This document shows, piece by piece, positions 54,887-63,955 of a stretch of DNA of 64,000 bases (positions within the stretch are counted from its first letter, which is position 1; each line of letters begins with the position of its first letter). Below the pieces are notes generated by a model that was not told the DNA's origin, ran no database searches, and saw only the letters and a list, made by a program, of their open reading frames with translations. The DNA comes from a phage, in sequence record OZ346212.1; one strand, given 5' to 3'. A program made the translations under genes and the position numbers.

Positions 54887-56170
54887 TCATTCAAGCACCT
54901 CCCAAGTGTCTGGGTTAACATTTCGGACGCAGATACCGACAGGGAATTGGTAATTGTTGTCTTCTGTCCTTGCTTGGTATTTGAAGGTGACAAACTTGCC
55001 GATCATTTCCTGCATCCTGTCATAGCTACGCTCCTCGTGCGTGCCTTTCATCTTCATTTTAACAACAACACCTTCCTTGTCAACACAGATAAGAACACCT
55101 TCATCATTCTTATCTTTCTCAACGTCAATAACTTTCACCTCTGCGTCGTTGAACTTTTTCCATTTCAATGCTTCAGATGTTCGCTGACCATACTCATATT
55201 TACCGCAGAAATTACGCATGATAGTACCTTCATATCCTTCGGACATGAATATACCAACAGATTCTTCGCAATGATCAACTGTGTACGCAAGCTCTGCGTC
55301 AACAACCTTGATATGATCAAGCATCAGAGTGGTAACGGTATCCTCTGCATCCATAAGATCCTTGCAGCGTCCAGACTCTGTTTCTGGATCCCACCACACC
55401 TTGTCGCTAGGAATATCAAAAATGTGATACTCCAGATCGTAGCTACAGTATCCACCGTAACGCAAATCATCACGAACAGGCTCAACATCGACAGGAATAT
55501 CTACCTTGTTGAAGTTTTTGTATGTTGATAAGCCTGCCTTAATTGCTGCATGACGGCGTTTTTTATCTGCCTCATAGTCTTTATCGATCTCGGCCTGAAT
55601 CTCTTCCTGTGTGCGCCACCGTTTAGCAAGAGACACTATTTTCTGCAAAGGAAGACCATGAATGTATAGTTCCCCATCAAGTTGTTTAATCCCAGTGGTA
55701 GAATGGAAAGAACGAAGTTGCTCTAAAAGCTTTCCTTGAATAGGGTAGGACTTATTACCACGGGAAATAAATTTAGGCTCACCATTTTGGAAAACAACAA
55801 GCAGACGAAGGCCATCTAACTTACGCAAGATCCAGCAAGGTAATTTAAGTGCCTTGCCACGCTTCAGGTAGTCATGCACCAGCATAGGTAAAAGATCAAC
55901 ACCCTGCTCGCAATCTTCCATGTTTTCAACATACCCCAGACGGACTTGTTTTTCCCACTTGCTGATAGCCTCAAGCTCGGCCTGTTGCTCAGCTGTAGTC
56001 TCGTTGGCACGACCTACGTTTTTAGGTGTACATACCGTCTCTTTGTACTGCAATTTACCGTCAAGCTTGCCAAACTCTACGATAACCTTTTCGCCATCAG
56101 TGAATACTTTCCACTGTTGGTAGCTGCCATCTTTGTTCAGTGCGTACAGTGTTGTTTTGATTTGATGCAT
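54887..56170 (-). CDS. ATP-dependent DNA ligase
   Basis: Motif I RKLDGLR, motif IV EGTIMR, motif V LKWKKF. Confidence 0.8.
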   Translation of the reverse strand: MHQIKTTLYALNKDGSYQQWKVFTDGEKVIVEFGKLDGKLQYKETVCTPKNVGRANETTAEQQAELEAISKWEKQVRLGYVENMEDCEQGVDLLPMLVHDYLKRGKALKLPCWILRKLDGLRLLVVFQNGEPKFISRGNKSYPIQGKLLEQLRSFHSTTGIKQLDGELYIHGLPLQKIVSLAKRWRTQEEIQAEIDKDYEADKKRRHAAIKAGLSTYKNFNKVDIPVDVEPVRDDLRYGGYCSYDLEYHIFDIPSDKVWWDPETESGRCKDLMDAEDTVTTLMLDHIKVVDAELAYTVDHCEESVGIFMSEGYEGTIMRNFCGKYEYGQRTSEALKWKKFNDAEVKVIDVEKDKNDEGVLICVDKEGVVVKMKMKGTHEERSYDRMQEMIGKFVTFKYQARTEDNNYQFPVGICVRNVNPDTWEVLE

Positions 56171-56439
56171 TACTCGGCCTCTTCCTTAAAAATTTTAAAC
56201 ATCTCTTCTTTACTCATTACCAACCAGTCTCCCATAAAGTCAACTAACCAATCTCCCTGGTACAAAACCAAGTTGCCAAACGGCTCAACAAGCTCACACA
56301 TGCGACGAATATCTCTGGTCCGAACAGGTGACGATGTAAACACACCTGTATCAATCCACCGTTGCAGATCAGATACTGATGAAGAGCTTCCATCAAACTG
56401 GTGTGCTTCTACAGGTTTAGCAAGATTAAATAACGGCAT
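56170..56439 (-). CDS. hypothetical protein
   Basis: ORF track. Confidence 0.45.
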   Translation of the reverse strand: MPLFNLAKPVEAHQFDGSSSSVSDLQRWIDTGVFTSSPVRTRDIRRMCELVEPFGNLVLYQGDWLVDFMGDWLVMSKEEMFKIFKEEAE

Positions 56440-56734
56440 TGCAGTCCTCCTTCTGTAGTAGGTCTTTTATAGGATAAACAAGTAAGTGTGGATCGGAATA
56501 ACGTATAGTCCTATTCTGCCACACTATGAACTTTATTACAACCAAATTTACAATATCTTTATCACCATGTAGCCCAACACACACATTTGTCCATATTTTG
56601 TGGTTGAAGATCTTGCTATCGATGTAGATTTTAGTGTCAAACTTATCTTCCATTCTACCTATAAGTTTGATCAGCTCCTTCATCTGGTCGCCAAACACAG
56701 CATCTTTTTCAAGATCTCTGGAATGCTTGTACAT
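56426..56734 (-). CDS. hypothetical protein
   Basis: ORF track. Confidence 0.45.
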   Translation of the reverse strand: MYKHSRDLEKDAVFGDQMKELIKLIGRMEDKFDTKIYIDSKIFNHKIWTNVCVGLHGDKDIVNLVVIKFIVWQNRTIRYSDPHLLVYPIKDLLQKEDCNAVI

Positions 56735-56796
56735 AACTAACTACCTCACTGCATACTTTCCATAATAAGTAAAGCCGGGTAATCCCGGCTATGTTG

Positions 56797-57510
56797 TTAA
56801 ATATACTCTGTTACATCCTTGAAGCTCGAAGGCTTCATAATCTTACCTTTACTGTCAAGGAATATAATAACTTTATTACCGTTGTAGAACTCCTCTTTAG
56901 CAACGAAACCTTCGTAGCGACCACCAAAACGACGCTCAAGATCTTCAATCTCTAACTCTATGAGCAATTCAGTAGACATATCTGCACTGGCACCGTGAGA
57001 ATATCGTAGATGGTTGATCCGTGCAAACTTGCTGTCATTAGATTTGAGAACCTTCCGCATCATCCCACACACATCGCCGCGAAGCTGGAACAGCAAAGCT
57101 GTTGACAACTCCGCTAAGCGGTAAGCTGACGCTCTTTGCTTGGATGTGTTTTTCGCAGCGATCAGTGTATCATAGAACTCACCGATCTTGAACTTAAGAC
57201 CTCGTGGATTATCAAACAGGTTTGACCACTTTTCGTGATTATCATTAACAAGATAAGCGGCATAACTTGTGACAACGTGAAGATCGCAGGCCTCTTTTAG
57301 CAGGTGATCTCCACCATCACCTTTCTCCAGCTCTTCCAAAACCTCATTGAACTCTTCCTCAATGAAGCTAAGCTGTAATTCGAATGGTGTGTATGATTTT
57401 TTCACTTTAGCTGCCACACGGTTCCAGTTTTCCACCCAGTTGGCAGACCAAAGGTAGTTTTCAGGCTGAGACAGTTTTTCCAGGTTGTCGATCAGTTTAG
57501 TATTCAGCAT
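56797..57510 (-). CDS. hypothetical protein, possible MazG-like NTP pyrophosphohydrolase
   Basis: EEEFNEVLEELEKGD...LLKEACD; weak. Confidence 0.5.
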   Translation of the reverse strand: MLNTKLIDNLEKLSQPENYLWSANWVENWNRVAAKVKKSYTPFELQLSFIEEEFNEVLEELEKGDGGDHLLKEACDLHVVTSYAAYLVNDNHEKWSNLFDNPRGLKFKIGEFYDTLIAAKNTSKQRASAYRLAELSTALLFQLRGDVCGMMRKVLKSNDSKFARINHLRYSHGASADMSTELLIELEIEDLERRFGGRYEGFVAKEEFYNGNKVIIFLDSKGKIMKPSSFKDVTEYI

Positions 57511-57523
57511 TAAAGGTCTCCTT

Positions 57524-58285
57524 TTAAAGTTCCATAAAGTTTTCTACAGTTTCAATAAATGCTTTATCAGAGAAAGCGTCAACAGCACCGTTAAACCATA
57601 CAGGGATCCCGCGATCCTCATATTGATAAAGGTCGCTACGTGAAATGCCACTCCCATCTGCACTCTGCGAGTCATACTTGTTTACAATCAGCAGTTTTGT
57701 GCCTTTACAAGTAGCAGGAAACAATTCCCAGTTAAAATTAATAACTGTGTTAGAACAACCTACTAGGATCACCATATCATTGCTTGTGAGAGATGTCAAC
57801 AGGTCATACATGTCTGTATACTTAGGAGCAACCTCACCGAAGAACACTACATTGGGCTTAACCCAGGTATACTTGCCTGTATCTACCTCCGTGTATCCGA
57901 TATTTTTAATTACATCATTACCTTCAGCATCTTCGTAGGTGATTTCAGGCAAATACCCGTGGACATGTAAAATATCTTCATGTTTTACACCAGCACGCTC
58001 CAGCAAATCATCTACATTGGTGGTAAGGTTGATCACACGACCAGACCAGCGGGAATACCACTCAGCGATCCGAAGATGTGCAAGGTTAGGATCAACACTG
58101 CCCAGAGCTACACGACGTGCATTGTAAAAGTCATGCACCTTATAGTAGTTCTTGGCAAAGGTGTGGATGTTGCACACCTCATCGATGCTGAAATTCTCCC
58201 ACATTGCAGTGCTACCAGATCGGAAAGTGGGAATACCAGATTCAGCGCTCAAACCAGCACCGGAGATAATAATCAGTCGTCGCAT
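57524..58285 (-). CDS. Sir2-family (sirtuin-like) NAD-dependent protein
   Basis: N-terminal GAGLSAESGIPTFRSGSTAMW matches sirtuin GAGIS..SGIP.FR. Confidence 0.75.
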   Translation of the reverse strand: MRRLIIISGAGLSAESGIPTFRSGSTAMWENFSIDEVCNIHTFAKNYYKVHDFYNARRVALGSVDPNLAHLRIAEWYSRWSGRVINLTTNVDDLLERAGVKHEDILHVHGYLPEITYEDAEGNDVIKNIGYTEVDTGKYTWVKPNVVFFGEVAPKYTDMYDLLTSLTSNDMVILVGCSNTVINFNWELFPATCKGTKLLIVNKYDSQSADGSGISRSDLYQYEDRGIPVWFNGAVDAFSDKAFIETVENFMEL

Positions 58286-58293
58286 AAGTGTCC

Positions 58294-58644
58294 TCAGTAG
58301 ATGTTTTGTTTAATCTCTATTCCAAACTTCTTGAATGAGTCAGCAGCAAGCATAAATTTACGAGCTGCCGATGGATTAGAAGTATGCACGAAAATAATCA
58401 CGTTGTCAATAAGTGGTGGCTTTCCGAATACAAGTTTCTCCTCTAGCGCAGAGAAGCAGTCGTACCCTTCAAGCACTTCACCTAGATCATTGTCAAAATA
58501 CCACTCAGATACGCGTCTGTAGAGCTTTCTCTTATCATTAAGAAAATCCATAAACTCAGAAGAATTCTTTAGCCACAGAGCGTCTGGGAGTCCATAATCT
58601 GACGGATCTCTAAAATCATCAAGCCACACAATCCACTTCTTCAT
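58294..58644 (-). CDS. hypothetical protein
   Basis: ORF track. Confidence 0.5.
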   Translation of the reverse strand: MKKWIVWLDDFRDPSDYGLPDALWLKNSSEFMDFLNDKRKLYRRVSEWYFDNDLGEVLEGYDCFSALEEKLVFGKPPLIDNVIIFVHTSNPSAARKFMLAADSFKKFGIEIKQNIY

Positions 58645-59576
58645 TGCATATAGTCCTCGTTGTGGAAATAGTAGTCCAGTATCTCACGACGCTCCTGCTC
58701 TAATAAGCAATTCCACACATCTTCTGTATAGTTGCTACGAATAAATTTTACCATACCGTAAAACTCTTCGTCAACACGTTTAAAGATATCATCATCCCAA
58801 ATCTTCCAAGCTTTACCCCTCATTACTGCCTTCCGTGCCAGATAGTATGGAGACTTGATCTTCAGCTGCAGATCATAAGGGTAGTAAGGCTTACGAATCA
58901 TATACCCTTCACCTCTTGTTTCTGCAGCTAATTCTTTTGCATAGCTGAACGGAATTTCACGCACAGTGTTAGGACGTTTTGCACCAAGGTATTTGGCAAT
59001 CCCATCTAAAGCTGCTTCTGGTAGCATTATTCCAGAATCATTATATCTGCAACCTATCAAATATGCGCCATGGTCTTCTTGAACAATATGCGGATCTGAA
59101 GGGTGACAAATTTCAAACATGAATGTCATGTTTTCATTGCCCATAACCTTCTTGATAAGATCTAAATTACCACATTGCTCTTGGATGGTTTCCTTTGCAA
59201 GGTTACAATATGGAGAATCAAGAGACCCGGTTGTTGAGAACAATAGGTCACCTTTATGAGATGATACCACACCAAGGAATCCGTTCTTTTTCTCTACCGC
59301 AGTCACAAGCTTATTGTCAGGCAGGTTGGTGGAGTTTTCTCCCAAGTTAAACACTTTTGTGAAGGGCCATGCCACAACATTTCCTTCATTACCTACAACA
59401 ATGCCTCGGCACTCCAGTAAACGAGGGGACAAATGCCATAAATTGTTGTAAAATACTTTTCTAGCATATTTATAGATCTTTAACCCGAGATCTGGGTAAT
59501 ACCTACTGGTTACAAGACCTTTGTCAACTAGGTCGTCTGCATTAAAATACTTCATTATATGTTCCTCATTTGTCAT
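58641..59576 (-). CDS. RNA ligase (nucleotidyltransferase superfamily)
   Basis: Motif I VEKKNGF (KxNG), motif IV EGYMIRK, motif V LKIKSPYY; alternative start at 59555 has the better RBS. Confidence 0.6.
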   Translation of the reverse strand: MTNEEHIMKYFNADDLVDKGLVTSRYYPDLGLKIYKYARKVFYNNLWHLSPRLLECRGIVVGNEGNVVAWPFTKVFNLGENSTNLPDNKLVTAVEKKNGFLGVVSSHKGDLLFSTTGSLDSPYCNLAKETIQEQCGNLDLIKKVMGNENMTFMFEICHPSDPHIVQEDHGAYLIGCRYNDSGIMLPEAALDGIAKYLGAKRPNTVREIPFSYAKELAAETRGEGYMIRKPYYPYDLQLKIKSPYYLARKAVMRGKAWKIWDDDIFKRVDEEFYGMVKFIRSNYTEDVWNCLLEQERREILDYYFHNEDYMQ

Positions 59577-59619
59577 TTTGTCAGTCTATCCTGCCACACA
59601 AATAACCTAGTGTCAACAC

Positions 59620-59648
59620 TTGAAATTAACAAAACAGTTAGGTATACT
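59620..59648 (+). promoter_or_regulatory. sigma70-like promoter (TTGAAA-N17-TATACT)
   Basis: In the divergent intergenic region. Confidence 0.5.
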
Positions 59649-59676
59649 ACCGTTGAAATTAAAACGGAGGGTCGCT

Positions 59677-60087
59677 ATGTCTAAAATGCTATATATCGTG
59701 CGTGGTCTACCAGGGTCTGGCAAATCAACACTGGCAAATGAGCTATCTTTAGAGGGTCTGTATCCACATTTTGAGAACGACATGTTCTGGTATGACGATG
59801 ACGGCAATTACAACTGGGATGCAAGTAAAGTAACACTCGCAGCAAAATGGTGCAAAGATAACGTAGAAGATATGATGCGTATGGGATACGACCGTATCGT
59901 GGTAAGTAATACGTTTACAAAAGAAAAACATGTGCAGGAATATGTTGACATGGCAATCACTCACGGGTATAGTTATACCGTGATCGTGGTTGAAAACCGC
60001 CACGGTAATAAAAGCATTCATGATGTTCCAGACAAGGTTGTGGATCGTATGGAACGCCAGCTTAAAAACTGCATTAAACTTAAATGA
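59677..60087 (+). CDS. polynucleotide kinase-like P-loop kinase
   Basis: MLYIVRGLPGSGKSTLA (cf. T4 Pnk GCPGSGKST); start moved to ATG 59677 after RBS ACGGAGGG. Confidence 0.65.
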   Translation: MSKMLYIVRGLPGSGKSTLANELSLEGLYPHFENDMFWYDDDGNYNWDASKVTLAAKWCKDNVEDMMRMGYDRIVVSNTFTKEKHVQEYVDMAITHGYSYTVIVVENRHGNKSIHDVPDKVVDRMERQLKNCIKLK

Positions 60088-60094
60088 GGAATGT

Positions 60095-60649
60095 ATGAAA
60101 TACTTTGTAACAAGCGACACACACTTTCTCCACCAGCGGGTCATGGAGTTTGATTCATGTCAAAAACACAGATCTCAGTATGATCACAATCTTGACAGTA
60201 TGAATGCAGGAATCATCGCCGAGTGGAACTCTGTTGTGTCACCTGCAGACACTGTGTTCCACTTGGGAGATATTGCGTGCACTAATGATAAGAATATCAA
60301 CAACTTACTTCCAGATATTCTAAATATGTTGAACGGACATATTATTCTTGTTCGTGGCAACCATGACACAAGGACGACTGTCAGAATTATGAAAGAGTTC
60401 GGTCATGAGGTTGTAGATTATTACGAGCTTCGCCACAACAAGAATTTGATCTGTATGAGCCATTACCAGTTTGCAAAGTGGAACAGAAAGCCTCACGGAT
60501 CAGTCCAACTGTTCGGTCATGCTCACGGAACCACACAACAGTTGTTTGGCAGGCAGCTTGATGTCGGTTGGGATGTGTGGGGGAGACTCTTACCATTAGA
60601 AGAGGCATACCGTATTGCAATGAGTTTTGATATTGACAGCAGGGAGTAA
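60095..60649 (+). CDS. calcineurin-like metallophosphoesterase
   Basis: DTHF, GDIACT, VRGNHD, GHAHG motifs; start moved to ATG 60095. Confidence 0.8.
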   Translation: MKYFVTSDTHFLHQRVMEFDSCQKHRSQYDHNLDSMNAGIIAEWNSVVSPADTVFHLGDIACTNDKNINNLLPDILNMLNGHIILVRGNHDTRTTVRIMKEFGHEVVDYYELRHNKNLICMSHYQFAKWNRKPHGSVQLFGHAHGTTQQLFGRQLDVGWDVWGRLLPLEEAYRIAMSFDIDSRE

Positions 60650-60696
60650 TCCCTGCTATTTTAAAGAAAATTGCCACACAAGGAGAATCAGGAGAT

Positions 60697-61047
60697 ATGA
60701 AAGATGGGGATAAGCTGCTATATCTTAAAGTCCCCCTTGAAATACTATCTATGTCAAAAGTTTTGAATGACACAACTGGGGAGGTTGTTGTTCTTGACTT
60801 GTATGACAAGATCGTATACTGCTACCTGCACAACTGGTATAAGCTTGGAGGAAATTCACGCTTCACACCAAGCACAAGGAAAATTGCAGCAGATGTTGGG
60901 ATAAAGAAAACAAAAGCAGCAGCGTGCGTTAAAACTTTAGAATGTGCAGGAGTGGTTGAAACATCCACACAAGGGAGAGGTAAAAGATGCACATTTTCCA
61001 AAGTTTTGCCACCAGAAGAAGTTATTCGGATGTCAACAACTGGTTAG
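60697..61047 (+). CDS. HTH DNA-binding protein (possible initiator/regulator)
   Basis: RBS AAGGAGA; helix-turn-helix-like STRKIAADVGIKKTKAAACVKTLECAGVVE. Confidence 0.5.
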   Translation: MKDGDKLLYLKVPLEILSMSKVLNDTTGEVVVLDLYDKIVYCYLHNWYKLGGNSRFTPSTRKIAADVGIKKTKAAACVKTLECAGVVETSTQGRGKRCTFSKVLPPEEVIRMSTTG

Positions 61048-61122
61048 ACCAGTAAAAACTTAAATATCTGTACTATAAGGATTCGTATGTTTTATGTTCG
61101 CCATGGAACGGATACTATTAAC

Positions 61123-61203
61123 TGTCCGTGATACGGACACTACTGTCCGTCACGCGGACACATCTGCCCGTAATACGGACACTAACTGTCCGTGATACGG
61201 ACA
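61123..61203. promoter_or_regulatory. array of four 17-bp palindromic sites (TGTCCGTgatACGGACA) at 21-22 bp phasing
   Basis: Sites at 61123, 61144, 61165, 61187; followed by a ~120-bp AT-rich tract. Confidence 0.65.
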
Positions 61204-61329
61204 CATAAAGAATATAACTAAAATAACTAAATAATAAAAAATAAAAGATCTAGTACTTATGGTACTAAGTACATATACTTAACTTATGTAGAATATACTA
61301 GATCCTAAGTACCATGTTTTAAATTTATT

Positions 61330-61600
61330 ACTTACTATGGGCAGTGTCGGCCCTTCATTGGCACTCGCCTACGAGGGGGCGAGATGCCGGGCCTCCTTGG
61401 CGCACACAATAACAGAAGTTCATACATGCAGGTCTGTTAACATGTGTGGGAGCGAAGCGATAGCGCAGGCCAAAGGCCGAGCACTGATGTGGACCACCGA
61501 CGAAAGCTTGCCAGCGCCGTAAGGAGTCGGTTGAGAGTCTCCCGCGCGAGCTTGGATGAAGTTTATGTGTGGAAACTGACAAGAAGGCCCCTAAATCGCT
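61330..61600. ncRNA. GC-rich island, candidate structured RNA
   Basis: Local GC jump; only overlapping both-strand ORFs without RBS; several short hairpins. Confidence 0.25.
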
Positions 61601-63584: not shown

Positions 63585-63659
63585 GCCCTGTTAGCTTAGT
63601 GGATAAAGCAGCGGCCTTCTAAGCCGTTGACACTGGTTCGAGTCCAGTACGGGGTGCCA
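63585..63659 (+). tRNA. tRNA-Arg (anticodon TCT)
   Basis: Cloverleaf folded by hand: acceptor GCCCTGT/ACGGGGT, D-stem GCTT/AAGC, anticodon loop CTTCTAA, T-loop TTCGAGT, encoded CCA. Confidence 0.8.
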
Positions 63660-63663
63660 AATT

Positions 63664-63750
63664 GGGGAGTTATCCCGTAGAGGTAGCGGTGTAGACTGTA
63701 AATCTATTGTCATTGCGACTCGGGTGGTTCGACTCCACCACTCCCCACCA
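63664..63750 (+). tRNA. tRNA-Tyr (anticodon GTA)
   Basis: Acceptor GGGGAGT/ACTCCCC, anticodon loop CTGTAAA, long variable arm, T-loop TTCGACT, encoded CCA. Confidence 0.8.
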
Positions 63751-63864
63751 AATTTATATTTTTAGATGCATAAATAATACAGATAATGGCATTGATATTT
63801 ATCGTCGTTTATACTAGTCACTAACTGCTCGAAAATCAGTGTCATTATCAGTATTATTTATAAA

Positions 63865-63955
63865 GGAGGGTAGGGAGCAATGGTGCTCAATCGGTCTTGA
63901 AAACCGTCCCGTTGAGGATGACTCGATGATGGTTCGATTCCATTACTCTCCGCCA
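63865..63955 (+). tRNA. tRNA-Ser (anticodon TGA)
   Basis: Acceptor GGAGGGT/ACTCTCC, anticodon loop CTTGAAA, long variable arm, T-loop TTCGATT, encoded CCA. Confidence 0.7.

Follow-up and report, generated by a model that had tools for sequence, protein, structure and literature searches.

A predicted RNA-repair cassette of separate ligase, kinase and phosphoesterase genes in a Vequintavirus genome

The 64,000 nucleotides of phage DNA in sequence record OZ346212.1 (the window, meaning that whole stretch) come from a Vequintavirus, an rV5-like myovirus of E. coli, and carry at positions 58641 to 60649 the genes for an RNA ligase, a P-loop kinase and a metallophosphoesterase. The three products belong to recognised families, keep their catalytic residues and are linked in evolution, in some lineages to the point of gene fusion. 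Together they probably make up a T4-like system of separate proteins for the repair of nuclease-cut tRNA, which by analogy would counter host ribonucleases (RNases). Across 58200-61100 the DNA matches Escherichia phage isim (MN850597) with 100% identity and ~100 further records with 97-99.9% identity, phage V5 among them at 97.4%. A preliminary description of this DNA, made from its letters alone, had placed the three open reading frames (ORFs) exactly where they lie, and the motifs it quoted are all present: KKNG, EGYMIRK (223-229) and LKIK (238-241) in the ligase and GLPGSGKST (10-18) in the kinase. The divergent arrangement that it described, with the ligase on one strand and the kinase and phosphoesterase on the other, is likewise real, and the two sides are separated by a gap of 100 bp. 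The cassette and its intergenic region are laid out as follows.

58641-59576, minus strand: Rnl1/Trl1-type ATP-dependent RNA ligase, 311 aa counted from the first ATG; PF09511, phrog_562
59577-59676, no strand: divergent intergenic region, 100 bp, containing a sigma70-like sequence and the ribosome-binding site of the kinase gene
59677-60087, plus strand: stand-alone P-loop kinase, 136 aa, predicted 5'-OH polynucleotide kinase; AAA_33, phrog_505
60095-60649, plus strand: dinuclear metallophosphoesterase, 184 aa, aq_1665-like; PF12850/PF00149, phrog_547

The second ATG of the ligase frame (59555) has a GAGGA site upstream and agrees with the N-termini of homologues and with the MN850597 annotation, and it is probably the true start, giving a protein of 304 aa. 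For the kinase, the longest ORF begins at a TTG (59620), and the ATG at 59677 is preceded by GGAGGG (59666-59671). The phosphoesterase starts 7 nt past the kinase stop codon.

The ligase matched PF09511 (RNA_lig_T4_1; E=1e-14, 55.4 bits against a cut-off of 28.3) and phrog_562 (2e-65), within a family of ~1,680 members (90% clustering) that are nearly all ~300 aa long and found on phage-like contigs. An alignment of 27 diverse homologues showed R57, K74, F76, K96-x-N98-G99, E155, E223-G224, K239-x-K241 and Y245 to be invariant, and nucleotidyltransferase motifs I (KxxG), III (E), IV (EG) and V (KxK) are all present. The family profile matched T4 Rnl1 (2c5u, 9do4) with E=3.4e-13 over residues 50-249, and the invariant residues fell on T4 Rnl1 R54, K75, F77, K99, E159, E227-G228, K240/K242 and Y246. 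Arg54, Lys75, Phe77 and Tyr246 are essential residues of T4 Rnl1; the first three are N-terminal residues specific to Rnl1, and the counterparts of all four are invariant in the ligase family. When an AlphaFold2 model of the ligase (predicted local distance difference test score, pLDDT, 90.2) was searched with Foldseek, the best matches, at ~1e-11, were the ligase domain of fungal Trl1, T4 Rnl1 and archaeal Rnl3. DNA ligases were much poorer matches, the African swine fever virus enzyme reaching ~1e-5 with a query template-modelling (TM) score, TMq, of 0.4 and the others E values of at least 1e-3. Profile and fold matches thus place the protein in the Rnl1/Trl1 RNA-ligase clade and not among DNA ligases, which bears out its earlier assignment to the ligase family.

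The kinase matched PF13671 (AAA_33; 6e-11) and phrog_505, 'polynucleotide kinase' (1e-10), and has more than 8,000 homologues, almost all of them stand-alone proteins of ~130 aa. Its invariant residues are those of the P-loop (G10...G15-K16-S/T-T18) together with D35, T79, E106-N-R108-H109 and H115. The best Protein Data Bank matches of its profile were a Mucorales stand-alone kinase (9d8a, at the top), Pnkp1 (4xrp, part of a Pnkp1-Rnl-Hen1 complex), T4 Pnk (1ltq), the Clostridium thermocellum kinase CthPnk (4gp7) and tRNA(Sec) kinase; the Pnkp model TIGR04075 was not matched. Alignment with T4 Pnk by hhalign covered the whole kinase domain (96.7% probability, E=4e-10) and set K16/S17 on T4 K15/S16 and D35 on the general base D35. 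The AlphaFold2 model (pLDDT 84) gave TM-scores of 0.79 to T4 Pnk, 0.73-0.77 to CthPnk and 0.73-0.75 to PSTK, compared with 0.44-0.55 to shikimate, gluconate and UMP-CMP (nucleoside monophosphate) kinases. By sequence and fold, then, the protein stands nearest to 5'-OH polynucleotide kinases and not to nucleotide or small-molecule kinases, in agreement with its first description as PNK-like, and it is a predicted 5'-OH polynucleotide kinase.

The phosphoesterase matched PF12850 (29 bits against a cut-off of 27), PF00149 (27.9 against 21.5; about 1e-6 for both) and phrog_547 (1.5e-51), and carries the motifs SDTH, GD, GNHD and GHAH. Across 34 sequences D8xH10, H13, G58-D59, G88-N89-H90, H123, G141-H142 and H144 are invariant, so that the full set for binding two metal ions (DxH, GD, GNH[DE], H, GH, GxH) is conserved and the calcineurin-type label given at the outset holds. 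The nearest solved structure was Aquifex aq_1665 (1xm7; E=1.8e-23), with GpdQ and YfcE as weak matches. An identity as a Pnkp/lambda-phosphatase-type enzyme was dropped, since the protein does not match TIGR04075 (Pnkp) and its family profile finds 1xm7. From its gene context, the enzyme is a predicted 2',3'-cyclic phosphodiesterase and 3'-phosphatase. The kinase and phosphatase are on separate genes, and the phosphatase is calcineurin-type, unlike that of T4 Pnk, both as the preliminary description had it; a calcineurin-type phosphatase is not unprecedented in RNA repair, because bacterial Pnkp carries one.

A scan of 2.9 million viral contigs yielded 80 ligase loci in 41 clusters at 70% identity, and partner genes were counted within 8 kb. 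The kinase lies near the ligase in 75 of the 80 loci (37 of 41 clusters), and 61 loci (34 clusters) have the phosphoesterase nearby. Gene order differs among lineages (MPE-Rnl-Pnk or Pnk-Rnl-MPE, for example, MPE being the metallophosphoesterase), and in two phage clusters the kinase and ligase form a single ORF of 421-432 aa. A scan centred on the kinase (78 loci) found the phosphoesterase in 51, a Rnl1-type ligase in 22, a Rnl2-type ligase in 19 and one or the other in 39, and all 114 partner genes were on the same strand as the kinase; kinase and phosphoesterase therefore look like a unit for end healing, combined with one or the other RNA ligase family. Separate context look-ups concurred with these linkage counts.

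The linkage extends into bacteria. A metagenome-assembled genome of Cardiobacteriaceae (L175, 5383-7513) encodes a 493-aa protein in which kinase and ligase are fused, with a phosphoesterase of the aq_1665 type after it, and Leptolyngbyaceae chromosomes encode a 712-aa fusion of kinase, Pnkp/PrpE-like phosphoesterase and Rnl1-type ligase, seen in Leptolyngbya sp. PCC 7375 (L185, 4726-6864) and ~25 further Leptolyngbyaceae loci, with an RtcB gene 1.6 kb downstream. This fusion scores 181 bits against the bacterial Pnkp equivalog, for which the cut-off is 750. The Leptolyngbyaceae and Cardiobacteriaceae fusions have an architecture like that of Pnkp with a ligase from another clade, and since the cyanobacterial fusions carry a Pnkp-type phosphoesterase domain, the phosphoesterase role there appears to be filled by a different subfamily. 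Fusion of the kinase to an RNA-ligase-type enzyme argues against a role as a nucleotide kinase. Conserved synteny and gene fusions across distant phages and bacteria strongly support the functional link among the three activities and are strong evidence that kinase, phosphoesterase and ligase heal and seal jointly. In one 3.5-kb contig (L003, GCA_019971425.1) the ligase-kinase pair occurs twice, as inverted copies face to face, and this doubling is probably an assembly artefact.

As a three-gene cluster, the cassette stands as first described; its extent does not, because cREC, Sir2 and MazG-like genes to the left of 58641 had been missed. These genes, and the DNA ligase beyond them, are as follows.

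58294-58644, minus strand: cREC (cyclic-phosphate-processing receiver-like) protein, 116 aa; PF20274
57524-58285, minus strand: sirtuin (Sir2), 253 aa; PF02146
56797-57510, minus strand: MazG-like NTP pyrophosphohydrolase, 237 aa; phrog_671
54887-56170, in the leftward gene string: ATP-dependent DNA ligase, separate from the RNA ligase

The cREC start and the ligase stop codon share 4 nt, the gaps between cREC and Sir2 and between Sir2 and the MazG-like gene are 8 and 13 nt, and the leftward string runs on past the MazG-like gene to the DNA ligase, 2.5 kb from the cassette. In the isim record (MN850597), the MazG-like gene is mislabelled 'putative Sir2-like protein' and the P-loop kinase 'putative phosphoesterase'. 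Among the megablast matches to 58200-61100 are 18 records titled 'Campylobacter phage', 16 of them with Campylobacter jejuni as host, which is unexpected for a region of an E. coli Vequintavirus, and these may be mislabelled or contaminated entries.

The cREC protein matched PF20274 (9e-14, 52.3 bits against 27) and keeps D10, R12, D51xD53-L-G and N90-P91 invariant, with an acidic pocket formed by D10 and D51xD53. The family was defined by Iyer et al. 2021, who noted its operonic links to RNA ligases and predicted that it is a metal-independent cyclic phosphodiesterase, and that it also processes cyclic ADP-ribose derivatives; Iyer et al. 2022 call it experimentally uncharacterised (PMC9503650). 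A cREC gene lies near the ligase in 13 of the 80 loci (6 of 41 clusters) and was found in 17 of the kinase-centred loci, 14 of which also hold an RNA ligase. Divergent members of the family adjoined Rnl1- or Rnl2-type ligases in three of four sampled contexts. The sirtuin matched PF02146 (7e-28, 98 bits), and its nearest solved structure is E. coli CobB (1s5p, 3e-21). It keeps the NAD+-binding motifs and catalytic His (GAGLSAESGIPTFR, TTNVD, HVHG) and has no CxxC pairs, the four zinc cysteines of CobB being without counterpart, and it is classed on these motifs as a sirtuin-fold enzyme of a divergent clade. The MazG-like protein matched phrog_671 (5.7e-22) and had no Pfam match. Sir2 occurs near the ligase in 11 of the 80 loci and the MazG-like gene in 13, each in 4 of 41 clusters, and the MazG-like gene is present in all 11 loci with Sir2; it is possibly an accessory gene that co-varies with Sir2. 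The counts indicate that Sir2 and MazG are lineage-restricted additions to a widespread core of ligase, kinase and phosphoesterase.

On the repair reading that we favour, host RNases, whether anticodon nucleases or other defence or toxin RNases, would cut tRNA or other RNA so that one end bears a 2',3'-cyclic phosphate and the other a 5'-OH. The metallophosphoesterase would then open and strip the cyclic phosphate or 3'-phosphate, perhaps assisted by cREC, the small P-loop kinase would add a phosphate to the 5'-OH, and the Rnl1-type ligase would adenylylate itself at Lys96, activate the 5'-phosphate and seal the break. That these RNAs are the substrates, that the steps run in this order and that the cassette counters host defence is our inference, and the countering of anticodon nucleases in particular is suggested by the likeness to T4. 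Because the cassette lies 3 kb from the phage tRNA gene cluster, the phage probably has the means to repair tRNAs as well as to replace them.

Transposon insertion data (HIDEN-SEQ) from the Vequintavirinae phage Bas54 bear on the role of these genes, as bas54_0207-0211 encode, in the same order, Sir2, cREC, ligase, kinase and phosphoesterase. On E. coli K-12 their mean insertion counts were 88-406, compared with 13.6 for the adjacent regulator, and since insertions are tolerated there, the five are accessory genes. Dispensability on K-12 is as expected for conditional counter-defence genes. In the same study the N-terminal domain of T4 rnlA did not tolerate insertions; unlike T4 rnlA, then, the Bas54 ligase is not required for virion assembly.

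Several observations weigh against T4-like tRNA repair. About 65 helical residues follow motif V of the ligase, compared with ~120 in T4 Rnl1, in which the C-terminal domain is the source of tRNA specificity, and the ligase scores 38.4 bits against TIGR02308 (the T4 RnlA equivalog), for which the cut-off is 242. Given this short C-terminus, the end of the alignment at residue 249 and the low TIGR02308 score, the protein belongs, so far as its sequence tells, to the Rnl1 family as an RNA ligase with a reduced C-terminal module, and is not the orthologue of T4 RnlA. In the kinase, T4 Pnk Arg38 has no aligned counterpart by hhalign, and the equivalent of Arg126 is ambiguous, as R108 (of ENRHG) falls on T4 R122, four residues earlier, in a low-confidence segment. 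The phosphoesterase belongs to the biochemically uncharacterised aq_1665-like subfamily and not to the lambda-phosphatase/Pnkp subfamily with cyclic phosphodiesterase activity. The five Bas54 genes were not depleted in a single comparison with a clinical isolate (log2 fold change +0.1 to +0.4). Literature searches turned up no defence system that is overcome by Vequintavirus RNA-repair genes, and no biochemical or genetic test of the ligase, mini-kinase, phosphoesterase or cREC families. Finally, an ATP-dependent DNA ligase lies near the RNA ligase in 41 of 80 loci (14 of 41 clusters), which leaves some room for a role at DNA ends, taken up below.

The presence of Sir2 and cREC raises an alternative, in our judgement unlikely, in which the locus runs an NAD+-dependent, yeast-like route. 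Here cREC or the phosphoesterase would open the 2',3'-cyclic phosphate to give a 2'-phosphate, the kinase and ligase would act, and the sirtuin would use NAD+ to take off the 2'-phosphate as KptA/Tpt1 does, the end product, ADP-ribose 1'',2''-cyclic phosphate, being cleared by cREC, the phosphoesterase or MazG. The sirtuin would thus be an RNA-directed NAD+-dependent 2'-phosphotransferase and cREC a metal-independent cyclic phosphodiesterase, in a fungal-type route beside or in place of direct dephosphorylation. Consistent with this are the tight leftward string of ligase, cREC, Sir2 and MazG-like genes, with its 4-nt overlap and 8- and 13-nt gaps; the 145-kb sister phages, which keep MPE>Rnl>cREC>Pnk>Sir2 on a single strand; the presence among the top fold matches of the ligase of fungal Trl1, which needs the 2'-phosphate; and a sirtuin that has its NAD site and catalytic His without the zinc module of protein deacylases. 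Against it, Sir2 and MazG occur in 4 of 41 ligase clusters compared with 37 for the kinase and 34 for the phosphoesterase, so that the core works without the sirtuin. The nearest relatives of the sirtuin are, moreover, CobB/SIRT5-type protein deacylases (3e-21), we know of no sirtuin that acts on an RNA 2'-phosphate, and the route would be superfluous if the metallophosphoesterase strips the phosphate outright. The route has been proposed explicitly for phage V5, with KptA-like removal of the 2'-phosphate by the sirtuin (Iyer et al. 2022, PMC9503650).

A role in DNA repair has a much smaller claim. The kinase and phosphoesterase would heal DNA ends (5'-OH, 3'-phosphate) for a DNA ligase, in the manner of mammalian PNKP, with the Rnl1-like enzyme acting on DNA or on RNA-DNA junctions. 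The ATP-dependent DNA ligase in the same leftward string, which recurs within 8 kb at the frequency given above, fits such a role, as does the position of the cassette bordering a replication and nucleotide-metabolism module, and T4 Pnk is active on DNA too. We nevertheless consider it very unlikely, as the kinase is fused to an RNA-ligase-type enzyme and never to a DNA ligase, loci without the Rnl1-type ligase pair kinase and phosphoesterase with a Rnl2-type RNA ligase, the strong fold neighbours of the ligase are RNA ligases throughout, and cREC likewise tracks RNA ligases.

About as unlikely is the reading in which soluble nucleotides, such as cyclic-nucleotide or ADP-ribose-derived immune signals and NAD+ pools, are the targets of the kinase, the phosphoesterase, cREC and Sir2, their linkage to the ligase being only positional. 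The phosphoesterase subfamily and cREC are both biochemically uncharacterised, the prediction for cREC includes cyclic ADP-ribose derivatives, and 17 of the 78 kinase loci have no detected phosphoesterase, ligase or cREC nearby. The kinase-ligase and kinase-phosphoesterase-ligase fusions argue for a common macromolecular substrate, however, and the TM-scores of the kinase fold are much higher to polynucleotide kinases (0.73-0.79) than to nucleotide kinases (0.44-0.55). Least credible of all is a role of the ligase chiefly in tail-fibre attachment, as suggested by the T4 gp63-derived name 'RNA ligase 1 and tail attachment protein' that many GenBank records carry and by the filing of phrog_562 under 'tail', for its gene lies in an early, replication-side module with repair enzymes, distant from the tail genes, and on K-12 the orthologous bas54_0209 shows a normal level of insertions (a mean of 192 reads per site), on which data this role is rejected.

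The divergent layout of the cassette was examined across the ligase loci. The kinase and phosphoesterase are on the strand opposite to the ligase only in the Vequintavirus locus (L010), and outside the window's own lineage the partners are co-directional in every sampled locus. The divergence point coincides with a genome-wide switch in gene orientation and with the minimum of the cumulative GC skew. A sigma70-like TTGAAA-17-TATACT lies in the intergenic region at 59620-59648 (plus strand), where promoter-like sites number 16 compared with a shuffled expectation of 10.8+/-3.1; the evidence for a promoter is weak, because the site count does not exceed that expectation. A shared bidirectional control region is not supported, given sites that are not enriched, partners that share a strand elsewhere and a switch that follows gene orientation and GC skew genome-wide. 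The layout is a lineage-specific inversion at the genome strand switch, without evident functional meaning.

Beyond the cassette, the gene at 60697-61047 encodes a helix-turn-helix 'replication initiation protein' (phrog_12838, 5e-80), the Bas54 orthologue of which tolerates very few transposon insertions. Seventy bp downstream of it, at 61119-61330, are four tandem repeats of 21-22 bp (TAACTGTCCGTGATACGGACAC), each with the palindrome GTCCG-N5-CGGAC, which are unique within the 64 kb (chance expectation 0.04 matches) and directly followed by an AT-rich stretch of ~120 bp. They are located at the switch in GC skew and gene orientation, GenBank labels them merely 'repeat_region', and they resemble an operator array or a replication origin of the iteron type. 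The tRNA cluster begins at 63585-63955 with Arg-TCT, Tyr-GTA and Ser-TGA; Ser-TGA was called by ARAGORN and falls below the Rfam tRNA gathering score, and Tyr-GTA is barely above it (29.9 against 29 bits). Related records extend the cluster with Lys or 'other', Thr, Ile/Met and Pro, and tRNAs were the sole matches in an Rfam scan of the window.

Several known systems resemble the cassette. In T4, tRNA repair by Pnkp (pseT) and Rnl1 (rnlA) counters the PrrC anticodon nuclease, and the window locus shares with it the three predicted activities, the catalytic and N-terminal residues of Rnl1 and the P-loop and Asp35 of Pnk. It differs in that T4 joins the kinase and a haloacid dehalogenase (HAD)-type phosphatase (DxDxT) in one polypeptide, whereas here they are separate genes and the phosphatase is a dinuclear metalloenzyme; in that the C-terminal region of the ligase is about half the length of that of T4 Rnl1; and in that the T4 repair genes are mutually non-adjacent, whereas the window locus is a cluster to which cREC, Sir2 and MazG-like genes are added. 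The same enzyme trio is found in Clostridium thermocellum Pnkp, where kinase, metallophosphoesterase and ligase form one protein. CthPnk is among the best kinase matches, and the cyanobacterial relatives of the ligase have a three-domain order identical to that of bacterial Pnkp; in the window, the three are separate proteins, the phosphoesterase is aq_1665-like and not lambda-phosphatase-like, and the ligase is Rnl1-type. No Hen1 methyltransferase was found among the genes at 54887-61047 or adjoining the cassette in annotated records, the nearest methyltransferases being DNA methyltransferases several kb away. The Trl1 and Tpt1 system of fungal and plant tRNA splicing is comparable in that the ligase fold fits the Trl1 ligase domain as well as it fits T4 Rnl1, and Mucorales encode a stand-alone kinase and a sealing-only ligase separately, as the window does. 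Unlike that system, the cassette has neither a 2H cyclic phosphodiesterase nor Tpt1/KptA, and its NAD+-using enzyme is a sirtuin.

The closest precedent is the locus itself. A sirtuin-linked RNA-repair neighbourhood, 'type 2', has been described from Escherichia phage V5 and Proteus phage Mydo (Iyer, Burroughs, Anantharaman and Aravind 2022, Viruses 14:1977, PMC9503650), in which V5-type members combine a sirtuin with cREC, MazG, a T4-like tRNA ligase and a nucleotide kinase, joined in some cases by a calcineurin-like phosphoesterase. The window has that very locus, in a phage of that genus, with all six components within positions 56797-60649 and no structural difference between the two; the published account is a prediction made by computation, with the sirtuin at its centre. 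GenBank records already name an RNA ligase, a polynucleotide kinase and a phosphoesterase at this locus, and a Pakpunavirus paper draws the same inference from kinase and ligase. With the genes annotated and the neighbourhood described, little is added here as discovery. The cassette is already known from annotation and comparative genomics, and the interpretation offered in the preliminary description is correct, though the cassette was drawn too narrowly there.

Defences that cleave tRNA, among them PrrC, RloC, PARIS, retron and Septu effectors, Cas13 and OLD, are now seen as one of the main branches of bacterial immunity, and T4 is, to our knowledge, the sole phage RNA-repair system that has been tested experimentally. 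The cassette represents a much more widespread toolkit than that of T4, with more than 1,600 ligase members at 90% clustering, more than 8,000 for the mini-kinase and more than 6,600 for cREC. The real upside is confined to the unproven roles of cREC and the sirtuin: if the sirtuin route were true, it would be the first case of a sirtuin acting on RNA and the first enzymatic role of a receiver fold outside phosphorelay. Vequintaviruses are tractable E. coli phages with a transposon library, and so provide practical ground for finding the nucleases that this cassette would counter.

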